DNA from: Acidobacteriota bacterium | GTDB taxonomy: Bacteria; Acidobacteriota; Thermoanaerobaculia; Gp7-AA8 | Direction of reading: 5' to 3' | Assembly: GCA_019244185.1 (NCBI GenBank) | Contig: JAFATB010000006.1 | Location: 96,001 to 160,000 of the forward strand | DNA: 64,000 nucleotides | In this document: in pieces, positions 1-17,212 of the stretch | Layout: each line of letters begins with the position of its first letter | Numbering within the stretch: position 1 is the stretch's first letter | Translations under genes and position numbers: made by a program | The notes under the pieces: generated by a model | The model's input: only the letters and a program-made list of their open reading frames with translations | What the model was told of the DNA's origin: nothing | Databases searched by the model: none

Positions 1-1
1 C

Positions 2-2038
2 GACGTATGCGAACGCCGCCGCCGCATCGCCGCGGCGCAGCGCGAGCGCGACCGCTTCATCGAAGAGCTCCGCGCCGTCGCCGAAGATGCCGGGACGCAG
101 CTCCGCGTCGTGCACGCCGGACCGCTGCTGTTCGAGCGCGCGGATGCCGTCGTCGAAATCGACGCGCGCAGCGTCGAGCGCGCCGAGCGCCGACTGCGCG
201 CGGCCACGTGCGAGGAACAGCTGCGGGAGGACGATCGGACGTTCGGCGCGCTGCTGGAACGCGATCGCCGACGACAGCCGCGCGACGGCGCGGCGCGGAT
301 CGTCGCGCAACGCAAGCGTCCCTTCGACGGCATCGACGTCGGCGAGCAGTTTCGCGCGCGCGGCTCCGTCGACGATGCGCAATGCCGTCGTCCGCGCGCG
401 GAGCAAGGCGCGCGACGCGGCATTCGCATCGCTGAGATGCCCGGCGGCGGCAGCGTCGCGCAGGAACATCTCCGAGTCGAGTGAAGGATTGGGCGGCGCG
501 AGCTGCGCCTCGAGGCGGATGAGCGCGCGCGCCCACTCCCATCGACCGCCGCGGAGTTCCGTGCGCGAAAGCGCCGCGAGCACGACACGCGCGCGGCCGA
601 AATCGCCGAACGCGCAGCTCTCGCGCAGAGCGGCGAGTCCGTGCCGGCGCGCGAGCTCCGGCTGTGCGATGAGGTCGTAGTCCTCGCTGACCACCGCCTC
701 CGCCGCCGCCTCGAACCCGCGCTCGCCAAGCGCGCGATGTAGCGCGACCGATTCCTGTGCGTGCGCGAGCGAGTCCGACCAGTGGCCGGCGACGGCATCG
801 CACAGCGCGAGCTCGTACAGGATCCGCGCGGTCAGCGCGCGATGTCCCGGCGCGCTGCGCTCCTCGGCGAGCATCGCTTCGAGCATAGCCGCCGCATCCG
901 CACCGCGGCTTTCGTCGAACAGCACGCTTGCGACGTAGAAGCGCGCATACCGCGCCATCGGGTTCTTCGCGCGCGCGAGCTGCTCCTCGGATGCGCGCAA
1001 CGCGCGCTCGGCGCCCGCGAGGTCGCCGTCGCGGTACGCGAGCCGTCCCGCGCGATACGCGAGCAAGCCGCCGATGACGCGCGTGTCGCGCGGCGCGCGG
1101 TCGAGCGCCGCGACCGTCTCGGCGAGCAGCGACTCGCCGCGCTCGCGCTGCAGCCACTCGCCCGCGACGCGCGCCTGCGCGAGCGATGCACGCGCCGCCG
1201 CCGCGTTGCCGCCCGCCATTGCCGCCGCCCACGACGTGAGCGACACCGCTTCGGCGAACTTGCGCGTGTGCTCGGGAAAGCGCTGCGCGAGCGCGCGCAG
1301 CGCGTCCGGCGGCAACCGATCGAACGTGCCCTTCACGCCGCTCCACGCCTCTTCATCGCTCGCGCGTTGCGCCGCGAGCCGCGCCCGCGCCTCGTTCGCC
1401 CACGACGACTGCGCGTCGACGTCGAGATACGTCCGCCACGCGTCGCGCGCGAGCGGCGTGAGCCCGAGCCGCTCGACCAGCACGGCGCGATTGAACAGCG
1501 CCTCCGCGCGACGCGGCTCCTGCATCAACGCGCGATCGAGCGCCGCCAGCGCCGCGATCGACTCGTCGTCGCGTCCGGTCGCGCCGCGAATCGCCGCGAC
1601 GTCGTTCCAGAACGCCGCGCCGTTCGTCGCGGGTGCATGCGCGTCCGCGAGCGCCGCCACCGCATGCGCAGGCGCATCGCCCGCGAGCATCGACGCGATC
1701 GCCTCCCCGCGCTTCGCCCCCGCACCGCCCGCCCGCGCCGCCAGCTCGTTCAGCGCCGATGCGCATTCGAGCCGCTCGACGTACGTCCGCGCCCGCGGCA
1801 GCATCCGCGCGAGCGCCGCCGCCGCGCGCTCGAGCAGCCGCGCATCATCGCGCGACGCCAGCCGCATCGGCACGATGCGCGGATCATCCGCCGCGAGCCG
1901 CGCCCGCTCGAGCGCGATCGCAAACCGCACGCGATCCGCCGGCAGCATCCAGGCGACGAGTGCGACACCTCCCACCACGAGCGCGACGCCAAGGCCGCGC
2001 CGCCAGTCCGGAAAGCGTGAGAAACGCGCGTGCGGAAT
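2..2038 (-). CDS. TPR-repeat protein, probable TPR-CHAT (caspase-like) protease; 3' end beyond left edge; start uncertain (ATT 2038 or GTG 1978)
   Basis: Missing from the ORF track because it has no stop in the window. My translation shows an N-terminal hydrophobic helix (GLGVALVVGGVALVAWML), TPR-like segments (FWNDVAA...AALDRAL...EALFNRAVLVERLGL...AWRTYLDVDAQSSWANEARARL) and ends ...ELFDEAVALALRRGDAAAAFAYV, the kind of segment that precedes a CHAT domain. The CHAT domain itself is not visible. Confidence 0.75.
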   Translation of the reverse strand, partial: MPHARFSRFPDWRRGLGVALVVGGVALVAWMLPADRVRFAIALERARLAADDPRIVPMRLASRDDARLLERAAAALARMLPRARTYVERLECASALNELAARAGGAGAKRGEAIASMLAGDAPAHAVAALADAHAPATNGAAFWNDVAAIRGATGRDDESIAALAALDRALMQEPRRAEALFNRAVLVERLGLTPLARDAWRTYLDVDAQSSWANEARARLAAQRASDEEAWSGVKGTFDRLPPDALRALAQRFPEHTRKFAEAVSLTSWAAAMAGGNAAAARASLAQARVAGEWLQRERGESLLAETVAALDRAPRDTRVIGGLLAYRAGRLAYRDGDLAGAERALRASEEQLARAKNPMARYARFYVASVLFDESRGADAAAMLEAMLAEERSAPGHRALTARILYELALCDAVAGHWSDSLAHAQESVALHRALGERGFEAAAEAVVSEDYDLIAQPELARRHGLAALRESCAFGDFGRARVVLAALSRTELRGGRWEWARALIRLEAQLAPPNPSLDSEMFLRDAAAAGHLSDANAASRALLRARTTALRIVDGAARAKLLADVDAVEGTLALRDDPRRAVARLSSAIAFQQRAERPIVLPQLFLARGRAQSALGALDAARVDFDDGIRALEQQRSGVHDAELRPGIFGDGAELFDEAVALALRRGDAAAAFAYV

Positions 2039-2066
2039 GCCGGAAAGCTTAACGCCGAACGGAAGC

Positions 2067-2093
2067 GGAGGACCGCGGGAACCGCGGCCCTCC
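2067..2093 (-). terminator. GC-rich stem-loop just after the caspase stop
   Basis: GGAGGGCCGCGG-TTC-CCGCGGTCCTCC (minus strand), 12-bp stem with one G-U pair; no clear U-tract. Confidence 0.5.
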
Positions 2094-2101
2094 TCGCGCG
2101 C

Positions 2102-3856
2102 TCATGGCCAGTTGCTGACGGAGCAGCCGTTGAGAGGCACCAGCTTGCCGGCCGGGATCGGCGGATCGACCGGGATCTGATCGCCGAGCTGGTAGTAGAG
2201 ATAGAACGTCCGCGCGGGATCGTCGCTGTTCGGAATGCCGAGGATGTCGATCTCGCGCTCGTTGCCGATCAGAACCGAGCCGCCCGGCTTGACGCTGATC
2301 CAGTCGTCGGGGCCGCCGCCGACGCGGATGCGCGCGGCCGGCTCCGTGAGAGGCAGATGCAGGACGACCCACTTGGGCGTGCGGCCGTCGAACGTGCCCG
2401 CCGTCGACGTCGAGATGAACTGCGTCTGCGCGTCCTCGAGCGGGCCGGCGGTGAGCGTGCCGCAGCGCAGATCGGCGAACGCCGCGATCCGCGCCGGATC
2501 GGGCACTTCTTCGAAGCAGTCGTCGCTCGGGTGATACGGCAGCTCTTCGCACACGCCGAACTTCATGCCCGGAACGCGCTCGGCGAACGACGACGTCACG
2601 GACAACGCGTCCGCCGACGAATCCGCGTTCTCGAAATCGATGCGCACGCCGTCGAGCTCCCACCGCAGGTACTGGAGCTGGCCGCCCTTGTTGTGCGGCG
2701 TCGAGATGGTCGGATCGATGCCGTAGCCGTCGATCTCGTCCTCCGCGACTTCGATGTACGCCTTGTGGCGCACCTCGGGATCCTTGCGGTCGTCGAACGG
2801 CAGCACGACGCGTTTCTGGTACGGGTCGGAGCGGCGGCGGCTGTCGAGGAAACAGCACATGCCGCGAAAGCGAATGTCGATCGAGTTCATGATTCCTTCT
2901 GCTCCTTTCGGCGTCACCGGCGTCTCCACCGGATCGTCGACTCTGCTGATGCTCGAGAACGGAGATGGCGCCGCCTGTCCCGGCTTCCCGGGGAATGGCT
3001 CCACGCCGCGCGCGACGTTGACGCGCAGCTCCGGCGACTGCCGCACGCCTTCCTTGAGCGGCTTGATGCCGGCGATGAGCTGGTTGAACGTGGCGTCGGC
3101 GTGTGCCTTGAGAAATTCGGTCGCGCGCTTGCTGAAGAGCAGCCGTGACTTTCCCGCGCCGAGCCGGAGCTCGAGCGCCGTTTCGCTGCGGCCGCACGCC
3201 GCGACGACGAGCGGGCGCTCGCGCTGCACCGGCGTGGCGGCGACGTTCAGCGTGCGCCCTCCACGCGCGGCGGATGCGGTCTCGGTTCCCGCGTCATCCG
3301 CATACGAACCGAACTCGCGCACGACGTCGCCGCTGCGCGGTAACTCCTTCGGGGGAATGAACAGCGGCTGCATGTCCGGGGCCTTGCCGTGCGCACGCCC
3401 GCGCTTCGCCGCCGCCGGTTGGAACGCCCCGCTGAAGCACGTGTCGATGATCAGCGTGAGATCGGTTCCGATCGGCGGCGCCGCAATCGCAAGCACGCGG
3501 GACAGATCGCTGTCGGTGATCGCGCTCGACGTCAGCTCGGCATCCTGCGCCTGCGGGAACACCATCAGCGCTTCCTCGAACTTGAAGCGTCCCTCATCGA
3601 CCGGCGCCGGCACGGTGCTGCCGTGGCCGAAGAAGCCGAACACGAGCTGATCGTTCGGCTGCGCGCCGGTGACGAGCTGCTGAAACGCCGCCAGCACTTT
3701 CGTGCGCGTCGCGTTCTGATCGGCGAGCGACGTCACGGTGAAGCCGTAATTCCGAAGAAGCGCCGCCCATTCTCCGAGCTCCGTCACCGGTGCGTCGAGT
3801 GACGGCGCAAATCCCCGGTAGTCCCCGACTGCAACGAGGACAGCTTTCTTTTTCAT
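2102..3856 (-). CDS. Caspase-family (peptidase C14, metacaspase) protein fused to an unknown C-terminal domain
   Basis: Starts MKKKAVLVAVGDY; catalytic His in FFGHGS and Cys in IIDTCFSG; later VAACGRSETALE; separate C-terminal domain MNSIDIRFRGMC...GCSVSNWP. Confidence 0.88.
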   Translation of the reverse strand: MKKKAVLVAVGDYRGFAPSLDAPVTELGEWAALLRNYGFTVTSLADQNATRTKVLAAFQQLVTGAQPNDQLVFGFFGHGSTVPAPVDEGRFKFEEALMVFPQAQDAELTSSAITDSDLSRVLAIAAPPIGTDLTLIIDTCFSGAFQPAAAKRGRAHGKAPDMQPLFIPPKELPRSGDVVREFGSYADDAGTETASAARGGRTLNVAATPVQRERPLVVAACGRSETALELRLGAGKSRLLFSKRATEFLKAHADATFNQLIAGIKPLKEGVRQSPELRVNVARGVEPFPGKPGQAAPSPFSSISRVDDPVETPVTPKGAEGIMNSIDIRFRGMCCFLDSRRRSDPYQKRVVLPFDDRKDPEVRHKAYIEVAEDEIDGYGIDPTISTPHNKGGQLQYLRWELDGVRIDFENADSSADALSVTSSFAERVPGMKFGVCEELPYHPSDDCFEEVPDPARIAAFADLRCGTLTAGPLEDAQTQFISTSTAGTFDGRTPKWVVLHLPLTEPAARIRVGGGPDDWISVKPGGSVLIGNEREIDILGIPNSDDPARTFYLYYQLGDQIPVDPPIPAGKLVPLNGCSVSNWP

Positions 3857-4003
3857 GACCCACCTCTCTTTGTTGGTTCGGGACGCGCGCGTGACCGTCA
3901 TCACATGAGAGGAACGCGGTGCGGGATTTCTCGCCGTGAAGCCCCCGAAAAACTCTCGAATCCCGCCACATTTGTGCCGCAGTCGGAGTCCAGATTGAGG
4001 TCC

Positions 4004-5581
4004 ATGAAACGAACGGCCCTCGGTCTGGTGATGCTCATCACGGTCTCGGTTGCGGCGCAGACGGTCGACGTCGCGCCGGCGACGAATGCGGCGCGCATCG
4101 TCCGCTCGCTCGCCGACACGTCCGACCTCCACAACGTCTACGCGCCGATCGGCTCGCGCCTCCTCTGGACGCGCAACGGCAAGCCGACCGCGCAGGCGCA
4201 GGCGCTGCTCTCGCTCTTCGTCACTGCGGAAACGAAAGGCCTGCGCTCGGCGGACTACGCCGTCGCCGCGCCGGCAGCCGGCGACGATGCGTCGCTCGCG
4301 CGCTTCGACGTCGCCATGACCGCCGCGACGCTCCGCTACGTCGCGCATCTCCACAGCGGCCGCATCGATCCGCACAGCGTCGGCTTCGACTTCGACGTCG
4401 CCGCGAAGCAGCTCTATCTCCCCGCCGTCGTGATGACGCTCGCCGAATCGAACGACGTCGCCTCCGCGATCGCCGCGCTCGAACCGCAGCAGCCCGAATA
4501 TCGTCGCCTCCTCACCGCGCTCGCGACGTATCGCCGCATCGCGAGCGAACCGGAGATCGTCGTGCCCGCGGTCGCGAAACTCTCGCCGTCCGATCACTAC
4601 GACGCGCTGCCGCAGCTCGCGGCGAAGCTCCGCCGCCTCGGCGATCTAACCGCTGACGCGAAGGTCGACGGCACGCTGTACGACGGCGCGATCGTCGACG
4701 CAATGAAGCACTTCCAGAAACGCCACGGACTCGAAGCCGACGGCGTCGTCAGCCGCCGCACGTTCGCCGCTTTGAACACGCCCGCCGCGGCGCGCGTGCA
4801 GCAGCTCGAATGGGCGCTCGAGCGCGCGCGCTGGATGCCGTCGACGTCCGACGCCGCCGTGCTCGTGAACATCCCCGAGTTCACGCTGCATGCGGTCGAC
4901 CGCAACGGCGAGCTCGCGATGCGCGTCGTCGTCGGGCAGGCCGCGGGCCACAAGACGCCGGTGTTCGACGGCGACATCCAGCACGTCGTCTTCCGCCCGT
5001 CGTGGAGCGTGCCCACGCGCATTCAGCGCAACGAGATCGTGCCGAAGGTCGTGCGCGACCGCGACTACCTCGCGCGCAATCGTTACGAAATTGTGGATGG
5101 CACCGGCCGCGCGATCGGCTCGTCGGTCGACGATGCCACGCTCGCCGCGCTGCGCACCGGCGCGTTCCGCGTGCGCCAGAAGTCCGGCGACGCGAACGCC
5201 CTCGGCCTCTTCAAGTTCGTCTTCCCGAACGACAACGACGTCTACCTGCATTCGACGCCGGCGCAGGCGCTCTTCGCCCGCACGCGCCGCGACTTCAGCC
5301 ACGGCTGCATCCGCGTCGAAGATCCGGTCGCACTCGCGGCGTGGGCGCTGCAGTGGTCGCCGGAGAAAGTGCGCGCCGCGCTCGCGTCGAAACGCGAAGA
5401 CCTCTACGTCCGCCTCGACAAAACGATCCCGGTGGTCATCCTCTACAACACCGCGGTCGCGACCGCCGACGGCGACGTGCACTTCTACGACGACATCTAC
5501 GGTCACGACGCCACGCTCGCCGCCGCGCTCGCGCCGGCGCACACGCAGCCCGCGACGATGCTCGCCGCCGCGCGGCGTTAA
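4004..5581 (+). CDS. L,D-transpeptidase, YcbB/LdtD-like (scaffold + PG-binding + YkuD)
   Basis: Signal peptide; PG-binding motif AMKHFQKRHGLEADGVV; VNIPEF; YLHSTP and SHGCIRV catalytic motifs; FYDDIYGHD. Confidence 0.92.
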   Translation: MKRTALGLVMLITVSVAAQTVDVAPATNAARIVRSLADTSDLHNVYAPIGSRLLWTRNGKPTAQAQALLSLFVTAETKGLRSADYAVAAPAAGDDASLARFDVAMTAATLRYVAHLHSGRIDPHSVGFDFDVAAKQLYLPAVVMTLAESNDVASAIAALEPQQPEYRRLLTALATYRRIASEPEIVVPAVAKLSPSDHYDALPQLAAKLRRLGDLTADAKVDGTLYDGAIVDAMKHFQKRHGLEADGVVSRRTFAALNTPAAARVQQLEWALERARWMPSTSDAAVLVNIPEFTLHAVDRNGELAMRVVVGQAAGHKTPVFDGDIQHVVFRPSWSVPTRIQRNEIVPKVVRDRDYLARNRYEIVDGTGRAIGSSVDDATLAALRTGAFRVRQKSGDANALGLFKFVFPNDNDVYLHSTPAQALFARTRRDFSHGCIRVEDPVALAAWALQWSPEKVRAALASKREDLYVRLDKTIPVVILYNTAVATADGDVHFYDDIYGHDATLAAALAPAHTQPATMLAAARR

Positions 5582-5608
5582 GAAAGAGAGCGAGTCTCGG
5601 TCGCGCGA

Positions 5609-6004
5609 TCAGCGGCACAGTGGCGGCCGGTACTCGGCAGGCACCGTGCCTCCCTTGCAGGACCACGTGAGGCCGCTGCCATCGATCGCCGGCGTCAATT
5701 CCAGCGTCTTACCCGTGAGATGCGAATCCGCCGTAAAGGTCACGACCACGACGCCGCCAGGCGCAATCGCGACGCTCGAAACGTACGGACCGGAGAGCGG
5801 AACCTCCGCGACGTGCGCCTCGGCGTTCGATGACGGCAATCGCCCCGTCTCCGCGTAAAAGGCGGAGACGAACGTCTTGACCGTGCCCGCCATACTGATA
5901 CCGCTTCCGACGGCAGCCATCGACTCGTAGGTCCCTCGCTTCGCGCACGTCCACGAAACGGCCAGGCCCAGACACAGCGCGACTGCGCGAACGCGTCTTC
6001 CCAT
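5609..6004 (-). CDS. Type IV pilin-like globular domain with an atypical N-terminus
   Basis: KTFVSAFYAETGRLPSSNAEA...YVSSV...GKTLELTP...WSCKGGTVPAEYRPPLCR with terminal disulfide pair; no G/FTLIE prepilin motif. Confidence 0.7.
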   Translation of the reverse strand: MGRRVRAVALCLGLAVSWTCAKRGTYESMAAVGSGISMAGTVKTFVSAFYAETGRLPSSNAEAHVAEVPLSGPYVSSVAIAPGGVVVVTFTADSHLTGKTLELTPAIDGSGLTWSCKGGTVPAEYRPPLCR

Positions 6005-6108
6005 CAACGATTGCGTCTTCAACGTGCTACCCGCGCAGCGTCAAGCCTCGCGTTGAAGTGTGGGCGTCGCTGCGACCGGTGTCAACGGCGAGCCGCAGCA
6101 CCATCGCC

Positions 6109-7155
6109 TCACACCATCGCCGCCGAGCCGATCTCCGGATGCGCGCCTGCGAACTCCACAAGCTTCGCCGCGTACGTCCGCAGCGGCGGCGCGGCGATGC
6201 CGGTGCCGGCAAGCGCGGCGAGCGTGTTCGTCGTGTCGTACGTCGTCGGATGAACGAAGTAGTCGACGGCGGCGGGCGGGATGCGCATCAGGCGATACAC
6301 GCCGGGCACGTAACGGAGCGCGCCTTTCGCGAGCGACTTCGTCAGCGGCACGCGAATCACGGTGCGGCCGGTCGCTTCCGCGATCGTGTCGATGGTCTCG
6401 TCGACGGTGAGCGGCCGCGGATCGGCGACCGCGTACGTGACGCCGGCGCCGTCGCGGCGCGCCATCAATGCGTCGAGCGCCGCGATCACGAAGTCGCGCG
6501 GCACGACGTTGAACGTGTAACACGACGGACGTCCGACCACCGGCAGCATCGCGAGCTTCGGCTGCCGCAGCAGCCACTGCATCACGAAGTACGGCCCGTC
6601 GAACTTCTGCGTGGCGCCGGTCGCGCTGTCGCCGACCACGACCGACGGCCGGTAGATCGTCGCCGGGATGCGCGACATCCGCTTCCGCACTTCCACTTCC
6701 GCGAGGTACTTCGTCTCCTCGTAATAGTTGTTGAAGCGCTGCCCTTTCTCGAGATCGTCCTCGCGAAACACGCCGGCGTAGCGCCCGCTGACGTAGCACG
6801 TGCTGATGTAGTGCAGGCGTTCGAGGCGCGGCGCGCGCTCGGCGAGATCGAGCACGCGCTGCGTGCCGACGACATTCACGCGCATCCCGATTTCACGCGG
6901 CACGCTGAGGTCGTAGACGGCGGCGAGGTGATAAATCTCACGAACGTCGCGCGCATCGATCGCATCGAGCGGCTGCGTGAGATCGCCTTCGACGAGTTGC
7001 ACGCGGCGCGCGTCGATCTGCCGCGCGCGTGTTTCCGCGAGCGGACGGAACTTCGGCTGCACGAGGCAGAGCGCGTCGTCGTCGCGGCGGCGCAGGATGC
7101 GCGGCAAGAGCTCCGTGCCGAGGAAGCCGGGAAAGCCGGTGAAGAAGATGGACAC
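6109..7155 (-). CDS. Extended SDR / thioester-reductase-like NAD(P)-binding oxidoreductase
   Basis: TGFPGFLG, HLAA, YISTCYVSG, YEETK (YxxxK), YRPSVVVGDS. Confidence 0.9.
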   Translation of the reverse strand: MSIFFTGFPGFLGTELLPRILRRRDDDALCLVQPKFRPLAETRARQIDARRVQLVEGDLTQPLDAIDARDVREIYHLAAVYDLSVPREIGMRVNVVGTQRVLDLAERAPRLERLHYISTCYVSGRYAGVFREDDLEKGQRFNNYYEETKYLAEVEVRKRMSRIPATIYRPSVVVGDSATGATQKFDGPYFVMQWLLRQPKLAMLPVVGRPSCYTFNVVPRDFVIAALDALMARRDGAGVTYAVADPRPLTVDETIDTIAEATGRTVIRVPLTKSLAKGALRYVPGVYRLMRIPPAAVDYFVHPTTYDTTNTLAALAGTGIAAPPLRTYAAKLVEFAGAHPEIGSAAMV

Positions 7156-7181
7156 CGCGCGGAGGATTGTACGCAGGTGAA

Positions 7182-7213
7182 ACGTGGAGGGCGCGCGGTG
7201 CGACCCTCCACGT
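7182..7213 (-). terminator. Stem-loop downstream of 7227..7574
   Basis: ACGTGGAGGG...CCCTCCACGT inverted repeat. Confidence 0.6.
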
Positions 7214-7226
7214 CGTTCGATGAGCG

Positions 7227-7574
7227 TTACTTCGTTGCGCGCTGCTGGGCCATCAACGCGTGAATCTGGTTGAGGACCTGGTCGGCGCGCGGGTCGCCGG
7301 CGTCCATCAGCGCGCGATATTCGGCGCGCTTCTGGTTGAGCGCGTCACGAATCGCGTACTGCTGCGCGGAGACGTCCCTGCGTCGCAGCGTCGCTCCGCG
7401 GTGCACGCCGCTCGTTGCCGAGGTCGCAACCGAGTGCGTGTTGCCGGGCGAAGAGATGAACGGCGGCGGCGGATCGTTCGTCGTCAGCGTGTACGCCGAG
7501 GACGACGCCGCAAGGCCGAACAGCAGGCCGGCGCCGAGGGCGAGAGTGCCGAGAGTTTTCCGTGTCGTCTTCAT
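7227..7574 (-). CDS. Small secreted hypothetical protein
   Basis: Signal peptide MKTTRKTLGTLALGAGLLFGLAASSSA; SD-like GAGAAGGG; host-like codon usage. Confidence 0.75.
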   Translation of the reverse strand: MKTTRKTLGTLALGAGLLFGLAASSSAYTLTTNDPPPPFISSPGNTHSVATSATSGVHRGATLRRRDVSAQQYAIRDALNQKRAEYRALMDAGDPRADQVLNQIHALMAQQRATK

Positions 7575-7682
7575 GCCCTTCTCTATCGCAACATCCAGGC
7601 CGCATTTGCTGCTGCAAAATCAATCATTTACGCGTACGGATGAGCCGCGAAACGGACAGCGTGTCGCGTCGAGGCGCCGTTC

Positions 7683-8516
7683 TCACGGCTGAGGCTGAGG
7701 TGGCGCCGGAAAGCCCATCTGCGACCACGCGTCGCCGGTGACGTTGTCGATCGACGACGCCCAGGTGATGAAGTTCGGCGACGGCGCGTCGCTGATGTTC
7801 TGCACGACGACTTGAAACGAGCCGGTCGCGGTTCCCGTGAGGCCGAACTGGCTCACCGACTGCGCGGCGACCTCGACCTCTGTCGTTTCTCCCGCGCCGG
7901 CCGGCGTGCTGCCGATGGTCGTCACGCGGAAGCGCTGCGTTGTGTCGGAGAGATTCGTGATGCCGGCGTTCATGCGGTACTGCTCGTTGCGGCGCACGCC
8001 GAAGATCCAGCGCAGCAGGCCGTTGGTCGTAACCGGCACGATCGCGGGGAACGTCTGCGACATCGTGCCGTTCGTCACCTGCGGCTCCGGCGTCCAGATG
8101 CGCGCGGTGGCGTGCAGCGCGGCGTTCGGATCGAGCTCGCCGTTCGCGTCGACGGCACGGACGTCGATCGCGCCGAGTCCCGACTGCTGCAGGATGTTCG
8201 TCACGAAATCCTCGGAGAAGAAGCCGCTCTGCGCCGGAACCGTGATCGTCACCGGCGCAATGCCGGCGCCGCTCGTGCCGAGCGGAAGCCATCGCAGTTC
8301 GACGCGCTGTTCCGCCGCGCGGAAGTTGATCACCGTGATGTCGCTGCGGAAGAACGTGCCGTTGCCGCCGGGCGTGCTGCCGGCGATCGGAATGACGATG
8401 CGGTTCGCGGACGTGCGCGGGATGATGAGGTCTTTGTCGGATGTCAACGGTGCGTGGGCTTGCGCGTGGAGCGAGGCGGCGAAGAGGAGAGCGAGAAGAG
8501 CGGTCGGGATGCGCAT
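7683..8516 (-). CDS. Secreted hypothetical protein (IPIAGSTPG-xNGTFFRSD type)
   Basis: Signal peptide MRIPTALLALLFAASLHA; motifs IPIAGSTPGGNGTFFRSD, YRMNAGITN, WASSIDNVTGD. Confidence 0.8.
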   Translation of the reverse strand: MRIPTALLALLFAASLHAQAHAPLTSDKDLIIPRTSANRIVIPIAGSTPGGNGTFFRSDITVINFRAAEQRVELRWLPLGTSGAGIAPVTITVPAQSGFFSEDFVTNILQQSGLGAIDVRAVDANGELDPNAALHATARIWTPEPQVTNGTMSQTFPAIVPVTTNGLLRWIFGVRRNEQYRMNAGITNLSDTTQRFRVTTIGSTPAGAGETTEVEVAAQSVSQFGLTGTATGSFQVVVQNISDAPSPNFITWASSIDNVTGDAWSQMGFPAPPQPQP

Positions 8517-8558
8517 GCGGAACACGTAGCAACGCGCGAGCCGCGCTACACTGCGCGC

Positions 8559-9206
8559 ATGCAGAAGGTTCGCGTCGGTGTTCTCGGCTCCGGCGACGTC
8601 GGGCGCGTGCTCGCCGCCGGTTTCATCGGTCTCGGCCACGAGGTGAAGATCGGCTCGCGCGATCCGCAGAAGCTGCAGACGTGGGCGGACGCGGCGGGGA
8701 AAGCGGCATCGACCGGCACGTTCGAAGAGACCGCGCGCTTCGGCGACATCCTCGTCCTGGCGACGCTCGGCACCGCGACCGAGGACGTGATCCGCTCCGC
8801 GGGAATCGCGAACTTCGACGGCAAGGTCGTCATCGACGCCACGAACCCGCTCGACTTCAGCGCGGGCATGCCGCCGCGTCTTTTCGTCGGACACGATGAC
8901 TCGCTCGGCGAGCACGTGCAGCGTCTCGTGCCCAACGCGCGCGTCGTGAAAGCGTTCAACACCGTCGGCAACGCGCACATGATCAACCCGCGCTTCGCGG
9001 GCGGACCGCCGGACATGTTTCTGTGCGGCAATGACGACGACGCGAAGAAGATCGTCAGCCAGATCTGCGAGCACTTCGGCTGGGGCGTCGTCGACATCGG
9101 CGGCATCGAAGGCTCGCGGCTTCTCGAGCCGATGTGCCTCCTGTGGGTTCTCTACGGCGCGCGCACGGGCACGTGGAACCACGCGTTCAAGCTGCTGCGC
9201 GGTTAG
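8559..9206 (+). CDS. F420-dependent NADP oxidoreductase family protein
   Basis: GSGDVG, GSRDP, VIDATNPL, VVKAFNT; TACACT -10 box 6 nt before ATG. Confidence 0.9.
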   Translation: MQKVRVGVLGSGDVGRVLAAGFIGLGHEVKIGSRDPQKLQTWADAAGKAASTGTFEETARFGDILVLATLGTATEDVIRSAGIANFDGKVVIDATNPLDFSAGMPPRLFVGHDDSLGEHVQRLVPNARVVKAFNTVGNAHMINPRFAGGPPDMFLCGNDDDAKKIVSQICEHFGWGVVDIGGIEGSRLLEPMCLLWVLYGARTGTWNHAFKLLRG

Positions 9207-9323
9207 GGAACCCTCTGCAAGTTCGCGGGCGCGCGGGTTACGAAACCGTTGCGCCGCACGGAACGCGGGGCAGCAAACTTGCAGCGGAGGCGGCTTCGGT
9301 GTTCATCTAGAGCTGAGGTGTCT

Positions 9324-12300
9324 ATGCGAATCGCGGTTCGTTTCGCCGTCCTTGCCGTTCTCTTCTCCCTCCTCACTCCCATCGCCAGCGCCCAGTACTT
9401 CGGCCGCAACAAGGTCCAGTGGGAGGCCTTCGACTTCAAAGTGCTCCAGACGGAACACTTCGACATCTACTACTACGACCAGGAAGCGGACGTCGTGCAG
9501 GACGTCGGGCGCATGGCCGAGCGGTGGTACGCGCGCCTCTCGCGCGTGTTCAATCATTCGTTCAAGCGCAAGCCGATCGTGCTCTACGCAAACGCAGCCG
9601 ACTTCCACCAGACTACGACCACCGGTGGTCTCATCGGCGAAGGCACGGGAGGTTTCACCGACGCGTTCATGAACCGCGTCGTGCTTCCGCTCACCGGCGA
9701 CTACGCCGAAAACGATCACGTCCTCGGCCACGAGATCGTGCACGTCTTCCAGTACGACATCGCCGCGAACGCGAACCAGAATCGCCGGCGCTTCCAGCTC
9801 GAACAACTGCCGCTGTGGCTCGTCGAAGGCATGGCCGAGTACTTCTCGAAAGGCCGCGTCGATCCGCTCACCGCGATGTGGATCCGCGACGCCACGCTCC
9901 AGAACCGCATGCCGAACCTGCGCGACCTCACGCGCGATCCGCGCTACTTCCCGTATCGCTACGGCCAGGCGCTCATGGCGTACATCGGCGCGCGCTTCGG
10001 CGACGAGGCGGTCGTGCGCTACTTCATGGCCGCGGGCATGACGGGCATCGAGGAAGGCTTCGACCGCGCGCTCGGCGTGCCGGCCAAGCAGCTCTTCACC
10101 GACTGGACCGAATCGGCGCGCGAGCTGTACAACCCGATCGTCGCCGAGCGCACCGCGCAGCTGCCCAACCTCCTCGTCGGCCGCCGTCCGGAGCCGGGCA
10201 AGAAACGCAACCGCGGCTCGTCGGAGCTGAACGTCGGCCCCGCGGTGAGTCCCGACGGCAAGTACGTCGCGTTCCTCTCCGCGCGCGAGCTCTTCTCGAT
10301 CGATCTCTTCCTCGCCGACGCGCACACCGGCCAAGTCATCCGCCGGCTCGTGTCGTCGGACCGCGACGCGCATTTCGAGTCGCTGCGCTTCATCGAGTCC
10401 GCGGGCTCGTGGTCGCCCGACAGCCGCCGCCTCGCGTTCATCACGTTCGCCAAAGGCGACAACTACCTGACCATCGTCGACGTCGAGACGCGCAAGGTCG
10501 ACACGATCCACGTGCCGGGACTCGAGGCGATCACCAACGTCGCGTGGGGACCGGACAACCGCACCATCGCCATCGCCGGCCAGACCACCGGCGTCAGCGA
10601 TCTGTTCCTCTACGACATCCAGTCGAACCAGGTGCGGCGCCTCACGGCCGACAAGTACGCGGACCTGCAGCCGGCGTGGTCGCCCGACGGCCGCACGCTC
10701 GCCTTCGTCACCGACCGCGGCACGAACACCGTGCTCGAACAGCTGCGCTTCACGCCGATGCGCCTCGCCACGATCGACATCGCGTCCGGCCAGGTGCATC
10801 TCATCGACGCCTTCCCCGCCGCGGAGCACATCAATCCGCAGTTCTCTCCGGATGGAAGCTCGCTCTATTTCATCGCCAACCCGGAAGGCATTCCGGACCT
10901 CTACCGGATCGGATTGGCGGATGGACATCTCTCCCGCCTGACGGCCGTCACGACGGGCGTCTCCGGCATCACCGAGCTCGCGCCGGCGCTCAGCGTCGCG
11001 TCGCGCAGCGGCGACATCGTCTTCTCCGTCTACGAGGGCGACAACTACAACCTCTATTCACTGCCCGCGAACGCCACCGGCACCGCGATCGCCGCCGCCG
11101 CTGCGCCGCCCGAGAACGCCGCCGCGCGCGCCGCGCTCCTGCCGCCGCTGCGGGCGACCGGCTCGGAGATCACCGGCTATCTCATGCGCCCCGAGGAAGG
11201 ACTGCCGCCGGCGTCGACGCAGTTCACGGAACGCAGCTACAGGCCCGACCTTCACCTCGCCTACCTCGGACCTCCGACGCTCGGCGTCGGCGTCGACCAG
11301 TTCGGCTCGGGCGCGAGCGGCAGCGTCAGCGCGTTCTTCAGCGACATCCTCGGCCAGCACAACGTCGGCTTCACGTTCCAGGGCGGCGGCAGCTCCGGCG
11401 GCGGCAGCATCGGCGATCAGCTCGGCGGCGAAGTCTTCTACCTGAATCAGACCCACCGCCTGAACTGGGGCGCCGACGTCACGCACATCCCGTACGTCTA
11501 CGCCAACGCCGCCTACGGCACCGGCTTCGTCCCCGGCACGAACCAGCCCGCGGACATCTATCAGGAGTTCCGCGAGACGCAACTCGTCACCGACGCCACG
11601 GGCCTCGCGCAGTATCCGTTCAGCTCCACGCGCCGCGTCGAGGCGTCCGCCGGCGTCGAACGCTATTCGTTCAAGCAGGAGACGATCACCTACTACTTCG
11701 TCGGCAACGAGATCGTCGAACGCGACCGCGAGCGGCTCCCCGGCTCGTTCGTGCTGAACCTCGGACAGGTGCAGGGCGCGTTCGTCGGCGACAGCTCGAT
11801 CTACGGCTTCATCTCGCCGATCGAAGGCACCCGCTATCGCTACGAGGTCACCGCGCTGCGCGGCGATCTCAATTTCGAGACCGCGCTAGCCGACTGGCGC
11901 CGCTACTTCTTCTTCCGTCCCGTGACGCTCGCCGTGCGCGGACTGCACTACGGCCGCTACGGCGCGGGCTCCGATGACACGCGCCTCTCGCCGCTCTACC
12001 TCGGACAAGGCTCGCTCGTGCGCGGCTACGATCCGTATTCGATCAACGCATCGGAATGCGTCGGCGCCGCCGGCACGTGCCCGGTCTTCGATCGTCTCGT
12101 CGGCACGCGTCTCCTCGCCGGCAGCGTCGAGCTCCGCGCACCGCTCCTCGGCACGCGCGAGTTCGGCCTGATCAACGCGTCGTTCCTGCCGACGGAGATC
12201 TTCGCGTTCGGCGACGTCGGCGCGGCGTGGAGCTCGGGCCAGCACGTCGACTGGCAGTTCAAGACCAACACGACCGCGCGCGTGCCGGTCGTCAGCGTCG

Positions 12301-12915: not shown

Positions 12916-14651
12916 ATGAAACGTCGTCTCTGGCTCATCGTCTCGCTGCTCGTCGCACTGCACGCGCTCGCGGAGGTGACGCTGCCGCGGATCGAAGGGC
13001 ACGTCGTCGGGTACGGAGGTCCGATCCCCGGCGTGACGGTGCTGCTGACCGGTCCCGGCATTCGCTACACGCGCGTGACCGATAGCAATGGGGCGTTTCG
13101 CTTTGACGCTGTGCCGCGCGGGGACTACGAGATCCGTGCGGAGTTGGAGGGTTTCGCGCGAACGAGGCGCATGGTCACCGTCGCCGTGAACGATCTCACG
13201 CTCGAGTTGTCGCTCCACGCCGAAGTCACGGAAGCCATCACGGTGACGGCACTGTCGCCGACCGCACACGATCCGTGGACGGTCCTGCGACAAGTCTCCG
13301 GAACGCGGGAGCAAACGCACGCCCGCTACGCGCACGTCGAGGAGCACGCGTATCTCGACGCGTCGAAGCAGCGCACGACGACGTTCTCCATCGACGTCGA
13401 TCGCGCCTCGTACGCGAACGTCCGCGGCTTGCTCCAAAGCGGCTACGACGTTCCGCCCGATGCCGTGCGCGTCGAGGAGATGATCAACTACTTTACTTAC
13501 GACTATCCGCGGCCGTCCGACGGCATCCCGTTCAGCATCACCACCGAGATCGCCGGCTGTCCGTGGAATCCGGCGAACCGCCTGCTGCGCATCGGCGTGC
13601 AGGGGCGCGCGCTGCAGGAAGCGGACATGGCGCCGAACCAGCTCGTGTTCCTCGTCGACGTCTCGGGATCGATGGACGAGTCGAACCGGCTGCCGCTGAT
13701 CCAGAGCGCACTGCGGCTGCTCGTCGCGCGGCTGCGCGCGGAAGACCGCGTCGCGATCGTCGTCTACGCGGGAGAAGAAGGCCTCGCGCTGCCGTCGACG
13801 TCGGGCGCGGACAAAAGCGCGATCCTCGCCGCGATCGACAACCTCTCGGCGGGTGGTTCCACGGCCGGCGGCGCGGGGATCGAGCTCGCGTACAAGATCG
13901 CGCAGCAGAACCTCATCCCCGACGGCAACAACCGCGTGATCCTCGCCACCGACGGCGACTTCAACGTCGGTCCGGCCAGCGCGTCCGAGCTCGAAGAGCT
14001 GATCGCCAGGAAACGCAAGTCCGGCATCTTCCTCTCCGTCGTCGGCGTCGGCGAACAAAACGACGCGGCGCTCGAGACACTCGCGGACAAGGCGACGGCA
14101 ACTACGCGTATCTCGACTCACTGAAAGAAGCAGAGAAGGTCTTCACGCGCGAGCTCACGAGCACGCTCGTGACGATCGCGAAAGACGTGAAGGTGCAGCT
14201 CGCGTTCGATCCCGCGCGCGTGGCGTCGTACCGGCAGATCGGCTACGAGAACCGCGCGCTCGCGAACGAGGACTTCGACAACGACGAAGTCGATGCGGGC
14301 GAGCTCGGCGCCGGCGACTCGGTCACGGTGCTCTACGAGGTTGTCCCGCGCGGCGACGCGCGCGGCGGCACGCTGTCGACGCTGAAGGTGCGCTACAAGG
14401 AGCCGCACGCGTGGCGCAGCCGGCTCGTCACCGCCGAGGCGGTGGATGAAGGGAAGAGCGCGTACGAGGCGTCGGTGGACTTGCAGTTCGCCGCGTCCGT
14501 CGCGGAGTTCGGCCTCCTGCTGCGCGACTCGCCGAACAAGGAGAGCGCGAGCTACGACGACGCGCTGCACCTCGCGCGCGTGTCGCAGGGCGCGGACCTC
14601 GACGGCATGCGCGGCGAGTTCCTGGCGCTGCTCGACAAGGCGAAACGATGA
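12916..14651 (+). pseudogene. YfbK-like VWA protein with carboxypeptidase-regulatory-like N-terminus, frameshifted near 14091 (or a sequencing error)
   Basis: FSIDVDRASY, DVSGSM MIDAS and LATDGDFNVG in one frame; GDGNYAYLDS...IAKDVKVQ...YRQIGYENR in another; one missing G restores LADKGDGNY. Confidence 0.8.
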
Positions 14652-14652
14652 G

Positions 14653-15423
14653 CTACTTGATCGCGATCAGCTCGATGTCGAAGACGAGCGTGCCGTGCGG
14701 CTTCCCGGGCTCGTTGCCGTACGCGAGATTGCCCGGAATCCAGAGCCGCGCCTGCTCGCCCGGCGTCATCAGCTGCAAGCCCTCGATCCAGCCTTTGATG
14801 ACGCCCCCGAGCGGAAACGTCGCCGGCTCGCCGCGCACGACCGAGCTGTCGAACATCCGCCCGTCGGTCGTCCAGCCGGTGTAGTGCACGACGACCGTGT
14901 CTTTGCGCTTCGGGTGCTGCGTGCCGTCGCCGGGACGCAGCACTTTGTACGCGAGGCCCGACGGCGTCTTGATCGCCCCTTCGGACGGCGCGGCGACGTC
15001 GGCCGGCGTCTGCGGCGGATGCACGATCTCGACGAGCTCCGTGTCGAACACGAGACCGTTGTCGACTTTGCCGCCGGTGAGCGCGCCGGGCACCCACGCC
15101 CGCTGCCGCTCGCCGACGACCATCCCGCGCACCGCTTCACCCCAGCCCGGAATCATCTTCGGAACGCCGATGAGGAGCGACTGCGGCTCGACGACGTTCT
15201 GCACCAGCGAGCCGTCGGACTTCCACACCGTGTAGCGCACGCGCACGAGATCGTCCGCCGCCGGCTTCTCGGTTCCCGTCCCCGGCGCGAGCCTCTTCGT
15301 CACGAGCCCGTCCGCCGCCTTCTCCGCGTCGGCGGGAGGCGCGGTGAGATCGGCAGGAGGCGCGGGCTTGTCGGCGGCGGCGAGGGAGAGGGCCACGAGA
15401 AGAATCGGAAGGAGTCGTTTCAT
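14653..15423 (-). CDS. FKBP-type peptidyl-prolyl isomerase, two FKBP domains
   Basis: VVHYTGWTTDGRMFDSS, VIKGWIEGL, LVFDIELI; signal peptide. Confidence 0.93.
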   Translation of the reverse strand: MKRLLPILLVALSLAAADKPAPPADLTAPPADAEKAADGLVTKRLAPGTGTEKPAADDLVRVRYTVWKSDGSLVQNVVEPQSLLIGVPKMIPGWGEAVRGMVVGERQRAWVPGALTGGKVDNGLVFDTELVEIVHPPQTPADVAAPSEGAIKTPSGLAYKVLRPGDGTQHPKRKDTVVVHYTGWTTDGRMFDSSVVRGEPATFPLGGVIKGWIEGLQLMTPGEQARLWIPGNLAYGNEPGKPHGTLVFDIELIAIK

Positions 15424-15553
15424 CGCGGCGGCATTCTAATTCTGCTCTGTCTTCGTGACGATCCCGGCCGTGCGCTTCAGCCTCGCGTCGTTGAAAGCGA
15501 CGGAAGGTTCTGACAGTGAGTCCTTCGTGTGCGCTTATTAATGACTGCTGATC

Positions 15554-15830
15554 TTCAATTTCAAGCTACCGAACTTCAAATTGAAGTTGCCGACGTTCAA
15601 TTCGAAGCTGTCGACCTTCAACTTTGAAGCTACCGGCCTTCAATTCGAAGCTGCCGACCTTCAACGTTGAATCTACCGGCCTTCAATTCGAAGCTGTCGA
15701 CCTTCAATTTTGAATCTGCCGGCCTTCAATTCGATGCGACCGACCTTCAACTTTGAATCTACCGTCCTTCAATTCGAAGCTGTCGACCTTCAATTCGAAG
15801 CGACCGACCATCGATTTGAAGCGACGAACC
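15554..15830. repeat. Tandem array of ~13 units of 21/22 bp (TTCAA(N)TTYGAAGCTRYCGRCC)
   Basis: TTCAA starts at 15554, 15575, 15596, 15617, 15639, 15660, 15682, 15703, 15725, 15746, 15768, 15789; degenerate unit at 15810. Confidence 0.92.
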
Positions 15831-15946
15831 GTCCGCAGTTGCAACTTCGTCGATCGCTCTCACCTACTCTAACGTTGCGGAGAAACGTGCGCCGGCCGAG
15901 CCGGCGTGGTCCGTGCTGGCGTGGTCGCCGCGGAACGGCATCGAGA

Positions 15947-16048
15947 CAGCCGCACGTGCAGCCTGGTTAGGCCCTGAGCGCAGCCGGCCGCGCCGGCCAG
16001 CCGCACGTGCAGCTTGGCTATGCCCTGAGCGGAGCCGGCCGCGCCGGC
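15947..16048. repeat. Two tandem 51-bp REP-like units
   Basis: CAGCCGCACGTGCAGCYTGGYTAKGCCCTGAGCGSAGCCGGCCGCGCCGGC x2; related copy at 51873-51924. Confidence 0.85.
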
Positions 16049-16052
16049 CCGG

Positions 16053-17060
16053 CTACTGCACGAGCACGATCTTCTCCGCCAGCTCGTACCGCTCGTTCGC
16101 GAGCGTGTCCGTCACCGCGACGCGCAACAGATAGTCGCCGGGCGGGACGCGGCTCACGTCGACAGTGGTGCCGACGCCGAAGTGGCCCTGCACGCCTTTG
16201 AGCGCGATCGGCTCGATCGTCCCGGTCAGGCCGCGCAGCGATTTGCCTTCCGACTCGAGCGTGACGTTCGCGGTGAGCTTCGGCGCGCCGCTCGCGTCGA
16301 CCTGCGGGTTCTGCGCTTCGAAGAAGATCCACAGCTCGTCGCTGCCCTTGTGAAACGTCCGGTCGGCTTTCGGCAGGACTTTGATGCCGCCGAACGCGAA
16401 CGGATCGTCCGCGAGCTGCGGCTTCGCGAGCGGAAACACGGCATTCGACACGATGAGACGCGAGACGCGGCGCGTGGTCCGCTGCAACGGATTGAGCAGC
16501 ATCGGCATCGATGCCATGGCGACCGGCGCGTCTTTGATCGCGAGGCCGAACGTCGCGTTGCGATTGCCCGGCGTCAGCGGAAACGAGCGCTCGTAATACC
16601 AGCCGCCGTCGCCGGCCTTCGTCAGCACGACCGGCTCCTCGCGCGACCACGCCACGCCGTGGCCGCTCGCATCGGCGCCCGCGTCGAGCGCGCCGAAGAA
16701 GGTGACCTTGCCGTCCGCCGGAATCGCGACGTCCGACGACGGCGCGAAATGCATGGCGACGTAGTACTGCCCTTTCGCCGTGATGAACTCGCCGAATGCG
16801 ACGTGCAGCGGCGCGACCTTGTAGTCGGCGTGCTGCAAATCCGCGATCGCTTCTTTCAGCCGCGCGCTGCGCAGCGGATGCTCCGCGGCCGACGCCTCGC
16901 TGAGGCGCATCGCCACGAGCTCGTCGTTCGCACGCTGAATCTCGCGCTCGCCGATCGCGTGCGCATCGCCCGGCGCGCCGCGCGGGTCGCGGTCGCGTTG
17001 GGCGAAGAGCGGGAGCGCCGCGAGGAGAAGCAGCGAGGTGGCAAGACTCAGTGCGCGCAT
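16053..17060 (-). CDS. Secreted hypothetical protein resembling the C-terminal Ig-like region of GWxTD proteins
   Basis: Signal peptide; SRLIVS...DPFAFGGIKVLPKADRTF; PPGDYLLRVAVTD. Confidence 0.7.
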   Translation of the reverse strand: MRALSLATSLLLLAALPLFAQRDRDPRGAPGDAHAIGEREIQRANDELVAMRLSEASAAEHPLRSARLKEAIADLQHADYKVAPLHVAFGEFITAKGQYYVAMHFAPSSDVAIPADGKVTFFGALDAGADASGHGVAWSREEPVVLTKAGDGGWYYERSFPLTPGNRNATFGLAIKDAPVAMASMPMLLNPLQRTTRRVSRLIVSNAVFPLAKPQLADDPFAFGGIKVLPKADRTFHKGSDELWIFFEAQNPQVDASGAPKLTANVTLESEGKSLRGLTGTIEPIALKGVQGHFGVGTTVDVSRVPPGDYLLRVAVTDTLANERYELAEKIVLVQ

Positions 17061-17081
17061 GAGCGCACCGAGTCTACGCCC

Positions 17082-17201
17082 TCAGTCGCGCGGCACGTGA
17101 AACGGCACCTCGTCGTCCTGCGCGGTGAGATATGCGCGGTCGTCGTCCTGCGGTTTGCGGTCGTCGTCTTCTTCGATGCGGTACGAGCGGATGTCTTCCA
17201 T
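17082..17201 (-). CDS. Small acidic protein (39 aa) directly after aceA
   Basis: SD GAGGAG then MEDIRSYRIEEDDDRKPQDDDRAYLTAQDDEVPFHVPRD*; host-like codons. Confidence 0.55.
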   Translation of the reverse strand: MEDIRSYRIEEDDDRKPQDDDRAYLTAQDDEVPFHVPRD

Positions 17202-17212
17202 GTTGATTCTCC

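Follow-up and report, generated by a model that had tools for sequence, protein, structure and literature searches.

A putative partner family of DdvA-like TPR-CHAT proteases, fused to a metacaspase in an Acidobacteriota bacterium

A stretch of 64,000 nucleotides from an Acidobacteriota bacterium of the class Thermoanaerobaculia, hereafter the window (G000:C6:96001-160000, that is, positions 96,001 to 160,000 of contig 6 of the genome labeled G000), was analyzed and, as read from its sequence, holds at its left edge a predicted two-gene operon of a module expanded in this lineage. The core of this module is a pair formed by a DdvA-like protease with tetratricopeptide repeats (TPR) and a C-terminal CHAT domain, hereafter TPR-CHAT, and a beta-rich domain, here called X, which in the window is fused to a C14 metacaspase. 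In one bacterial family, X almost always accompanies TPR-CHAT proteins predicted to be membrane-anchored, and a single genome may hold as many as six of their cognate pairs. Among known kinds of system are CHAT/caspase cascades and TPR-CHAT anti-sigma factors; the X family itself, its near-obligate pairing with TPR-CHAT, its tail motif, and its fusion to a metacaspase appear to be undescribed in the libraries and literature searched. No partner family of this kind was found described in that literature, with the supplements of PMC11506125 (e.g., table S7) and bioRxiv preprints, which may bear on the point, lying outside the search. Caspase-fold proteases (CHAT and C14) are increasingly seen to act as switches in the immunity and signaling of bacteria, and the arrangement of proteases and X points to an unstudied two-protease signaling or cell-death module. 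The features of the locus, all on the minus strand, are as follows.

2102..3856 (-): gene A, a metacaspase-linker-X fusion of 584 aa (P0002), from open reading frame, translation, and Pfam C14 match
2978..3856 (-): C14 metacaspase domain, residues 1-293, from PF00656, fold match, and dyad conservation
2900..2977 (-): proline-rich disordered linker, residues 294-319, from low model confidence and proline content
2105..2899 (-): X domain, residues 320-584, ~265 aa, beta-rich, without library match but with a structure model and 101 homologs
2105..2134 (-): C-terminal tail LNGCSVSNWP (C578, W583, and P584), a conserved family motif
1979..2101 (-): spacer of 123 nt between genes A and B, open in the frame of gene B, where it would encode the first part of a predicted helix
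1..1978 (-): 5' two-thirds of gene B, a DdvA-like TPR-CHAT of 1067 aa (P0001) that continues for 1226 nt past the left edge, from flank sequence and PF12770

The pairing of X with TPR-CHAT was evaluated by locating X, CHAT, and C14 with local hidden Markov models (HMMs) in fetched loci, which comprised the 40 best-scoring ones (unpublished genomes left out), five earlier ones (L018 to L022), and two from metagenomes. A same-strand CHAT frame directly adjoined 41 of the 48 X genes in these other genomes (5/5 in L018 to L022, 34/41 in the 40 best family loci, and 2/2 in the metagenome loci), and 44 of the 48 had such a frame within 4 kb; two of the four X genes without CHAT (L069 and L076) lay at contig ends. 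The window genome, 5.3 Mb in size, contains 10 CHAT genes and five C14 matches, and the profile of the X alignment (A1) matched two further X sites in it, each between same-strand TPR-CHAT and C14 genes, and a broader HMM added three X genes, all of them immediately following a CHAT gene. Taken together, these matches place all six X genes of this genome next to six of its 10 CHAT genes, the chance of an X-CHAT adjacency being about 0.4% by our estimate (10 CHAT genes in 5.3 Mb). The initial annotation of the window, made from the sequence alone, had described stand-alone proteins of this type (N-terminal I.F.G.C and C-terminal CSxSxWP) as often flanking TPR-CHAT genes; that statement held when tested, as did the linkage of X homologs to TPR-CHAT on which its reading depended. 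Thus, the adjacency across loci argues that X is a dedicated partner of DdvA-like TPR-CHAT proteases. No adjacent X was detected for the CHAT genes at C4:691862, C4:722837, C4:742251, and C15:74898 of the window genome, the second of which sits two genes from an X. An apparent CHAT-X fusion at G000:C4:447733-451311 was dismissed: it stems from a long spurious frame in GC-rich DNA, and the true CHAT gene stops about 20 nt before a separate X gene.

C14 was linked to X less regularly, lying within 500 nt in 18 of 46 X genes and being fused to it in seven loci, including the window. The ortholog of the window pair in a related genome (G070) is arranged as three separate genes, C14→X→TPR-CHAT, in a different chromosomal context. 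Judging from these gene contents, X and TPR-CHAT together form the conserved core, to which C14 is added optionally. In a phylum-wide sample, X matches were found in 4/7 genomes of the window's family and in none of the other families sampled, and a tally within that family, which includes the unpublished genomes G484 and G485, gave matches in 66/124 genomes. A profile search of genome contigs with P0002 and A4 returned no loci, and the A4 search of metagenome contigs returned two. At the G070 locus (G070:C13, L018, 6342..11190, minus strand), the C14, X, and TPR-CHAT genes have lower third-position GC (0.71 for X) than their neighbors (~0.9), and the L024 region of the window genome has 62% GC, compared with about 68-69% in two other regions of that genome; these contrasts hint that the modules may be horizontally mobile.

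The X family amounted to 101 proteins at E ≤ 1e-3, 84 of them at E ≤ 1e-10, in a HMMER search of 1.84 billion representative proteins. By length, 47 of these representatives are fused (≥500 aa) and 38 stand alone (240-330 aa), the others being three intermediates and 13 fragments; in the source databases the family is named only "hypothetical protein". C14 was the only fusion partner seen, with PF00656 present in 3/3 longer forms. The X domain always extends to the last residue of its protein, and 93/101 representatives end in C-x4-[WYF]-P, with [GA]-C-[ST]-x-[TS]-x-[WYF]-P-COOH as the consensus of the tail. Exactly six residues lie beyond the last cysteine in 143/151 X sequences, a set that pools the representatives with related-genome loci and is not one of independent observations. 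The tail cysteine (C261) is invariant in alignment A1, in which mean column identity is 27%. A histidine of the domain, H47 (H364 of gene A), is invariant as well. Stand-alone forms start with Met and reach the first strand, I-x-F-x-G-[IL]-C, within a few residues. The X part of P0002 was without Pfam or NCBIfam match and PADLOC gave no X match; 36 X members compared with Pfam at E ≤ 1 returned single chance-level rows only, a search of plasmids by tblastn gave no match, and the best E value in a profile search of PDB sequences with X was 0.78.

An AlphaFold2 (AF2) model of X, built on a 36-sequence alignment, reached a predicted local distance difference test score (pLDDT) of 91.5 and a predicted template modeling score (pTM) of 0.89, with the tail (domain residues 258-266) below 50. 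The initial annotation had described a beta-rich domain of ~260 aa ending in GCSVSNWP, and translation and model agree with that description. The model found no convincing counterpart among solved or predicted structures: the best Foldseek hit in PDB had an E value of 7e-3 at a TM-score of 0.09, BFVD gave no match at E ≤ 1e-3, VIA-align gave 0/48,161 representative chains and 0/991 re-examined chains at Z ≥ 2, and the ESM Atlas gave no usable lead (best 0.76). The aligner itself works on such models, as it easily found C14 in the full-length model. Profile and fold comparisons also gave no match between X and known protease-associated effector families (bGSDM, Pepco, EACC1, MBL, alpha/beta-hydrolase, CalpT, Csx30, and others), where distant kinship is possible and some families perhaps have no solved structure. 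Since the model is confident and no solved relative was detectable, X is a candidate new fold, the absence of a match not being proof. Its last four residues had a pLDDT of 42 when X was modeled alone and of 84 in the full-length model, the two models being built on different alignments; this predicted ordering would fit docking of the tail. A predicted complex of TPR-CHAT residues 75-1031 (A5) with the last 43 X residues (A1) scored 0.01 against a mark of 0.32, in a run made without controls that weighs neither for nor against binding.

Gene A is a single open reading frame, starting with MKKKAVLV at 3856 and ending with a TGA stop at 2102..2104. Its residues 2-152 match PF00656 (Peptidase_C14) with 46.2 bits against a cut-off of 21.4, and the catalytic dyad consists of H78 in FFGHGS (codon 3623..3625) and C140 in IIDTCFSG (codon 3437..3439). 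C140 is invariant among the 45 fused homologs, at least 90% of which retain H78; 29 of the 45 match Pfam C14 at E ≤ 1e-3. Residues 1-293 of the full-length AF2 model were aligned by VIA-align to Arabidopsis metacaspase 9 (Z 25.1, root mean square deviation 2.4 Å, 224 aligned residues), Geobacter GSU0716 (Z 24.9), and metacaspase 4 (Z 24.8), and a Foldseek E value of 1.4e-14 likewise supports the caspase-hemoglobinase fold. The N-terminal part of gene A is thus alike to type I/II metacaspases and bacterial orthocaspases in Pfam score, dyad, and fold, and differs from them by its C-terminal fusion to X, which no Pfam model matches. Between the two domains, pLDDT stays below 50 across residues 295-319, eight prolines fall within the 37 residues 286-322, and both length and sequence differ among the 45 fused homologs. 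The intact dyad and the proline-rich linker claimed for this protein earlier are therefore both present, the former conserved in homologs and the latter disordered in the model. A fusion of the metacaspase-X type is not known from the literature, no search aimed at it having been made.

The co-oriented TPR protein reported next to gene A was confirmed as open reading frame 2..1978 (-), and the left flank of the same contig supplied the expected CHAT domain. PF12770 matches residues 749-1028 of gene B with E 3e-57 and 194.7 bits (cut-off 24), and the TPR matches are weak; the CHAT domain, with H894 and C940, lies entirely outside the window. Both residues are present in P0001, H894 being invariant and C940 kept in at least 90% of 19 partner orthologs. 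With their dyads intact, the C14 of gene A and the CHAT of gene B both look active, judging from their sequences. A profile built from 19 type-A orthologs (those in which X precedes TPR-CHAT) had 8rot_B (DdvA, 991 aa) as its best natural solved match, with E 1.8e-22 in two stretches, followed by separase (8e-6) and the craspase TPR-CHAT Csx29 (about 3e-4 to 1e-3), and its TPR region 93-203 matched the TPRs of PEX5 with E about 1e-9, a possibly generic match. The single sequence of gene B had no match in PDB at E ≤ 0.01.

The N-terminus of gene B is less regular. GTG 1978, the first canonical start, falls within the hydrophobic stretch LGVALVVGGVALVAWML, and a full membrane helix therefore requires a start farther upstream, where no in-frame ATG, GTG, or TTG exists back to the TGA of gene A. 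By eye, the first third of the helix and the homology to the N-terminus of the G070 ortholog lie upstream of GTG 1978, and the sole near-cognate start in the spacer 1979..2101 is an in-frame ATT, 24 codons upstream. The sequence suggests that the start of gene B may be non-canonical or that its start codon may have been mutated. Among the aligned partner TPR-CHAT frames, a hydrophobicity scan scored a membrane helix in 15/18, and the remaining three (L062, L067, and L091) show by eye a hydrophobic stretch after a basic N-tail. The membrane anchor attributed to this protein is therefore predicted for the partners, while in the window itself the helix is incomplete from GTG 1978. The H-x3-C-x2-C anti-sigma motif was absent from gene B and from all X→CHAT partners scanned, and no promoter-like or terminator-like sites were found in 1800..4200. 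Gene A, with its TGA, and gene B share a frame and are separated by only one stop; stop-codon readthrough or an A-B fusion was rejected because frames agree in only 9/22 X→CHAT loci, compared with ~7 by chance, and because of the 93 family representatives that end in the tail motif.

Two gene orders were observed. In order A, [C14→]X→TPR-CHAT, to which the window belongs, the CHAT protein has a short N-tail rich in Arg and a single hydrophobic helix, and it lacks the anti-sigma motif. In order B, a sigma factor gene of the extracytoplasmic function (ECF) type is followed by a gene for an anti-sigma, transmembrane (TM), and TPR-CHAT protein, then by X and in some cases by an exported C14. The H-x3-C-x2-C motif, with a TM segment after it, occurs in 10 CHAT frames, all of them in CHAT→X order, one further frame of this kind was seen by eye at C3 of G000, and Pfam zf-HC2 was found in the CHAT protein of L019. 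ECF sigma genes adjoin the TPR-CHAT gene in L019-L024, and most CHAT→X loci lie in an ECF sigma/anti-sigma context, which the initial annotation did not foresee. In a deeper branch, the TPR-CHAT bears a signal or lipoprotein leader, and after it come the genes for a divergent X, for a small lipoprotein, and for a long C14 that has a signal peptide; signal peptides are carried by the type-B C14 proteins. The X subtypes follow the types of their partners. An hhalign comparison shows type-A and type-B (divergent) X to be homologous across 246 columns (probability 98.4%, E 7e-15), and the divergent X retains a cysteine near its C-terminus.

Some further features of these loci were recorded. The small lipoprotein between divergent X and exported C14 (L021 ~6030..6480, minus strand; L022 10571..11017, plus strand; L023 8876..9322, minus strand) has ~120-148 aa, a lipobox, and W-x-[IV]-R...HYG...GGV motifs, without Pfam match in L022 and L023. 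Beyond CHAT→X→C14, L024 (G000:C4:716000-735999; 1149..9951, minus strand) encodes another TPR-CHAT (with a leader of the Sec type), a large von Willebrand factor A (vWA) protein, and a 990-aa protein with the tubulin-like domain Pfam Tubulin_2, all co-oriented and possibly part of a larger conflict or signaling island. A LuxR/GerE-type regulator follows X in L019 (10576..11364, plus strand), and L023 contains, at 13884..17404 (plus strand), a divergent ECF sigma gene, a gene without Pfam match that possibly encodes an anti-sigma factor, and a gene for a vWA/thioredoxin-like protein.

By analogy with described systems, we tentatively favor a reading in which X is a cognate recognition or regulatory partner of CHAT, acting as pseudo-substrate or substrate, and in which its processing controls the tethered metacaspase; we regard this as possible rather than established. 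As we infer binding, cleavage, and the direction of the cascade, the flexible and strictly C-terminal tail of X would dock to a caspase-fold protease or to its TPR array, and the activated TPR-CHAT would then process X or the linker, by which the tethered metacaspase would be released or activated. Such a cascade of caspase-like proteases would have two tiers, in analogy to SAVED-CHAT→PCaspase, and in paralogous loci the same TPR-CHAT/X core would be coupled to a zinc-finger anti-sigma factor and an ECF sigma output, as in DdvA/DdvS. Free C-termini are recognized by TPR carboxylate clamps, as in PEX5 and Hop, and the requirement for a free C-terminus in X would fit recognition of this kind. 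A broader and somewhat more doubtful proposal is that X is a new fold and an obligate partner of DdvA-type TPR-CHAT proteins, with its tail gating CHAT and the whole acting as a modular transducer with sigma or metacaspase outputs. If true, bacteria would here have an initiator/executioner pair of caspases under control across the membrane, and the module would offer a testable answer to what activates DdvA-like anti-sigma factors. Constructs made from X pairs would bear on protease gating, on caspase cascades outside CRISPR/CBASS, and on communication between signal-less proteins and exported proteases.

Several observations weigh against the partner reading. The window TPR-CHAT has no canonical start that gives a complete membrane helix, L052 and L056 carry C14→X without CHAT within 7 kb downstream, there is no defense context at the window pair, whose flanks are not shared with the G070 ortholog, and PADLOC returns a generic caspase match only. 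Moreover, X and the fused C14 have no signal peptides, while their partners carry a membrane helix, a lipobox, or a signal peptide, and the closest solved relative of these partners, DdvA, has a periplasmic TPR-CHAT, whose activating signal is still to be found, according to PMC11506125. Thus, with a signal-less X and exported-looking partners, direct contact needs either export of X by an unknown route or a type-A TPR-CHAT that faces the cytoplasm. The possibilities are therefore that type-A TPR-CHAT faces the cytoplasm, that X is exported by such a route, or that X is cytoplasmic. No signal peptide was found on X proteins (printed N-termini) or on short type-A C14 proteins. By eye, the segment after the helix of type-A TPR-CHAT is unusually Arg-rich. 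Export of X by hitch-hiking with its partner through the twin-arginine translocation (Tat) pathway found no support, an RR pair ahead of the helix being seen by eye in just 7/19 type-A partners, and an apparent signal peptide on the L020 X was discarded, as it lies in the overlap with the CHAT gene and an internal Met restores the usual N-terminus of the family.

The location of X bears on a different reading, which we consider unlikely, in which X is a signal-relaying or sensor subunit of DdvA-type regulated proteolysis. The TPR-CHAT/X pair would take in a signal across the membrane, and its outputs would be the release of an ECF sigma factor, by way of the anti-sigma domain fused to TPR-CHAT, or a cytoplasmic X-fused metacaspase. 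X would work in the cytoplasm, for example as receiver of the N-terminal fragment set free by CHAT autoproteolysis and intramembrane cleavage. Such a relay agrees with the signal-less X and fused C14, which resemble cytoplasmic proteins in this respect, with the ECF sigma genes beside TPR-CHAT in L019-L024, and with the 10 (by eye, 11) CHAT frames bearing H-x3-C-x2-C and a TM segment; DdvA, in turn, is proposed in PMC11506125 to cleave itself and then to undergo proteolysis by RseP. It is opposed by the N-tails of type-A TPR-CHAT, which are short and by eye without a conserved motif, by the type-B TPR-CHAT proteins, whose cleavable or lipoprotein signals leave no cytoplasmic remnant and whose C14 is exported, and by the window pair, which no sigma factor adjoins.

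DdvA/DdvS of Myxococcus xanthus (PDB 8rot/8rw5) is among the nearest described systems; of natural solved structures, DdvA matched the profile of gene B and its orthologs best. DdvA has one N-terminal membrane helix, as predicted for type-A TPR-CHAT, and both have helical repeats over ~750 aa and, at the C-terminus, a CHAT domain with a His/Cys dyad; the paralogous CHAT→X loci have the whole DdvA architecture (H-x3-C-x2-C, TM, and TPR-CHAT) together with an upstream ECF sigma gene. The ddvS-ddvA operon continues, as given in PMC11506125, with an unknown protein (MXAN_7287) and a clan-CD-type (C25) peptidase, a layout whose gene order is strikingly parallel to sigma/anti-sigma-TPR-CHAT/X/C14. 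The window pair is unlike DdvA/DdvS in that it lacks an anti-sigma domain and an adjacent sigma factor and in that X stands upstream and is fused to C14.

Proteases can be co-expressed with a dedicated cytoplasmic inhibitor, as in the staphostatin/staphopain pairs. By the same logic, X might be a cognate cytoplasmic inhibitor or a pro-domain-like guard of caspase-fold proteases, a reading to which we give little weight. Every exported TPR-CHAT or C14 would be made together with its own inhibitor, free of a signal peptide, whose Cys-containing C-terminal tail would plug the active-site cleft; in the window, X would autoinhibit the fused metacaspase. There is one X per CHAT paralog, with six pairs in the window genome, X never has a signal peptide while its partners have one, the flexible tail holds an invariant cysteine whose distance from the C-terminus is fixed, and that tail gains pLDDT in the fused model, all of which would suit an inhibitor. 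On the other hand, 260 aa is large for a staphostatin-like inhibitor, X shows no structural similarity to any solved inhibitor, and the need for a guard is unclear for Sec-exported proteins, which are unfolded in the cytoplasm. Still less probable is that the X-CHAT linkage reflects co-regulation or co-inheritance only, for instance with X as a member of a sigma regulon, without physical interaction. Direct contact between X and CHAT is inferred, and their compartments appear different, which would be in keeping with this explanation; the adjacency, however, survives two gene orders, deep divergence (27% identity), six paralogous pairs, and different flanks, and co-regulation alone hardly accounts for X being fused to another caspase-fold protease. 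The partner reading remains the one we prefer.

That reading was compared with further protease systems. In the SAVED-CHAT→PCaspase system of Haliangium ochraceum (type III-B CRISPR/CBASS), as here, the genes for a CHAT protease and for another protease of the caspase family occur together, and there the CHAT protease cleaves and activates this second caspase, according to 10.1101/2023.06.23.546230. The window module is unlike this system in that a Pfam scan of genes A and B gave no SAVED domain, no cyclic-oligonucleotide sensor or CRISPR is present, the CHAT protein looks membrane-anchored and has TPRs, and the conserved element is the extra X between the two proteases. The type III-E Craspase (Cas7-11, TPR-CHAT Csx29, and substrate Csx30) likewise combines a TPR-CHAT with an adjacent dedicated partner and a link to a sigma factor, but the similarity of gene B to Csx29 is weak (NCBIfam, 12.8 bits against a cut-off of 300) and the module here has no CRISPR effector; the X model had no PDB match, the presence of a Csx30 structure in that library being unchecked.

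Protease-gated modules pair the gene of a caspase-like protease with that of a small neighboring protein whose C-terminal tail is conserved, and one such protein, Pepco, is activated by the loss of a 2-kDa C-terminal tail, as stated in 10.1101/2025.11.14.688446. From these modules comes the idea that X is a latent death effector, like gasdermin or Pepco, that damages the cell once an adjacent CHAT or C14 has trimmed its tail, which we consider quite improbable. Modules of protease and effector with an inhibitory C-terminal tail are common according to the same source, and X is beta-rich with a conserved disordered tail. However, X is about 260 aa long compared with 117 aa for Pepco, its model and sequence gave no match to bacterial gasdermin, Pepco, EACC1, or MBL nor any other fold or PADLOC match in the libraries searched, and it is not among the ten families in the Fig. 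1 legend of 10.1101/2025.11.14.688446, with which it was compared by description only. The partner protease of X looks membrane-anchored and in many cases belongs to an anti-sigma factor, in contrast to effector-module proteases, which are fused to STAND or other phage sensors. The ECF sigma contexts and housekeeping flanks favor signaling over abortive infection, and the latent-toxin explanation is less favored because of these sigma-factor contexts and the lack of defense-island neighbors. For X as partner of TPR-CHAT, wired to a second caspase, as the initial annotation had proposed, the linkage (41/48 elsewhere and 6/6 in the window genome) and the C14 fusion speak in favor; its suggestion of defense finds no defense island here.

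The gene pair is bounded by a divergent L,D-transpeptidase gene and a convergent metallophosphoesterase gene, with MsrAB also flanking. The flanks contained no defense island, CBASS, CRISPR, or sigma factor, and the neighbors are housekeeping genes. The metallophosphoesterase gene convergent to gene B was considered as part of the module and dropped because its place next to the pair is not shared by the G070 locus. A type IV pilin gene (Pfam Pilin, E 8e-15) lies at 5609..6022 (-), a few kilobases from the module and seemingly unrelated to it, and an open reading frame of 115 aa at 7227..7574 (-), with a hydrophobic N-terminal stretch and no Pfam match, also seems unrelated. DNA nearly identical to window positions 1..4200 occurs in metagenome runs labeled rhizosphere, root, and rock, with no RNA run listed; three of the matching runs may represent the source sample.

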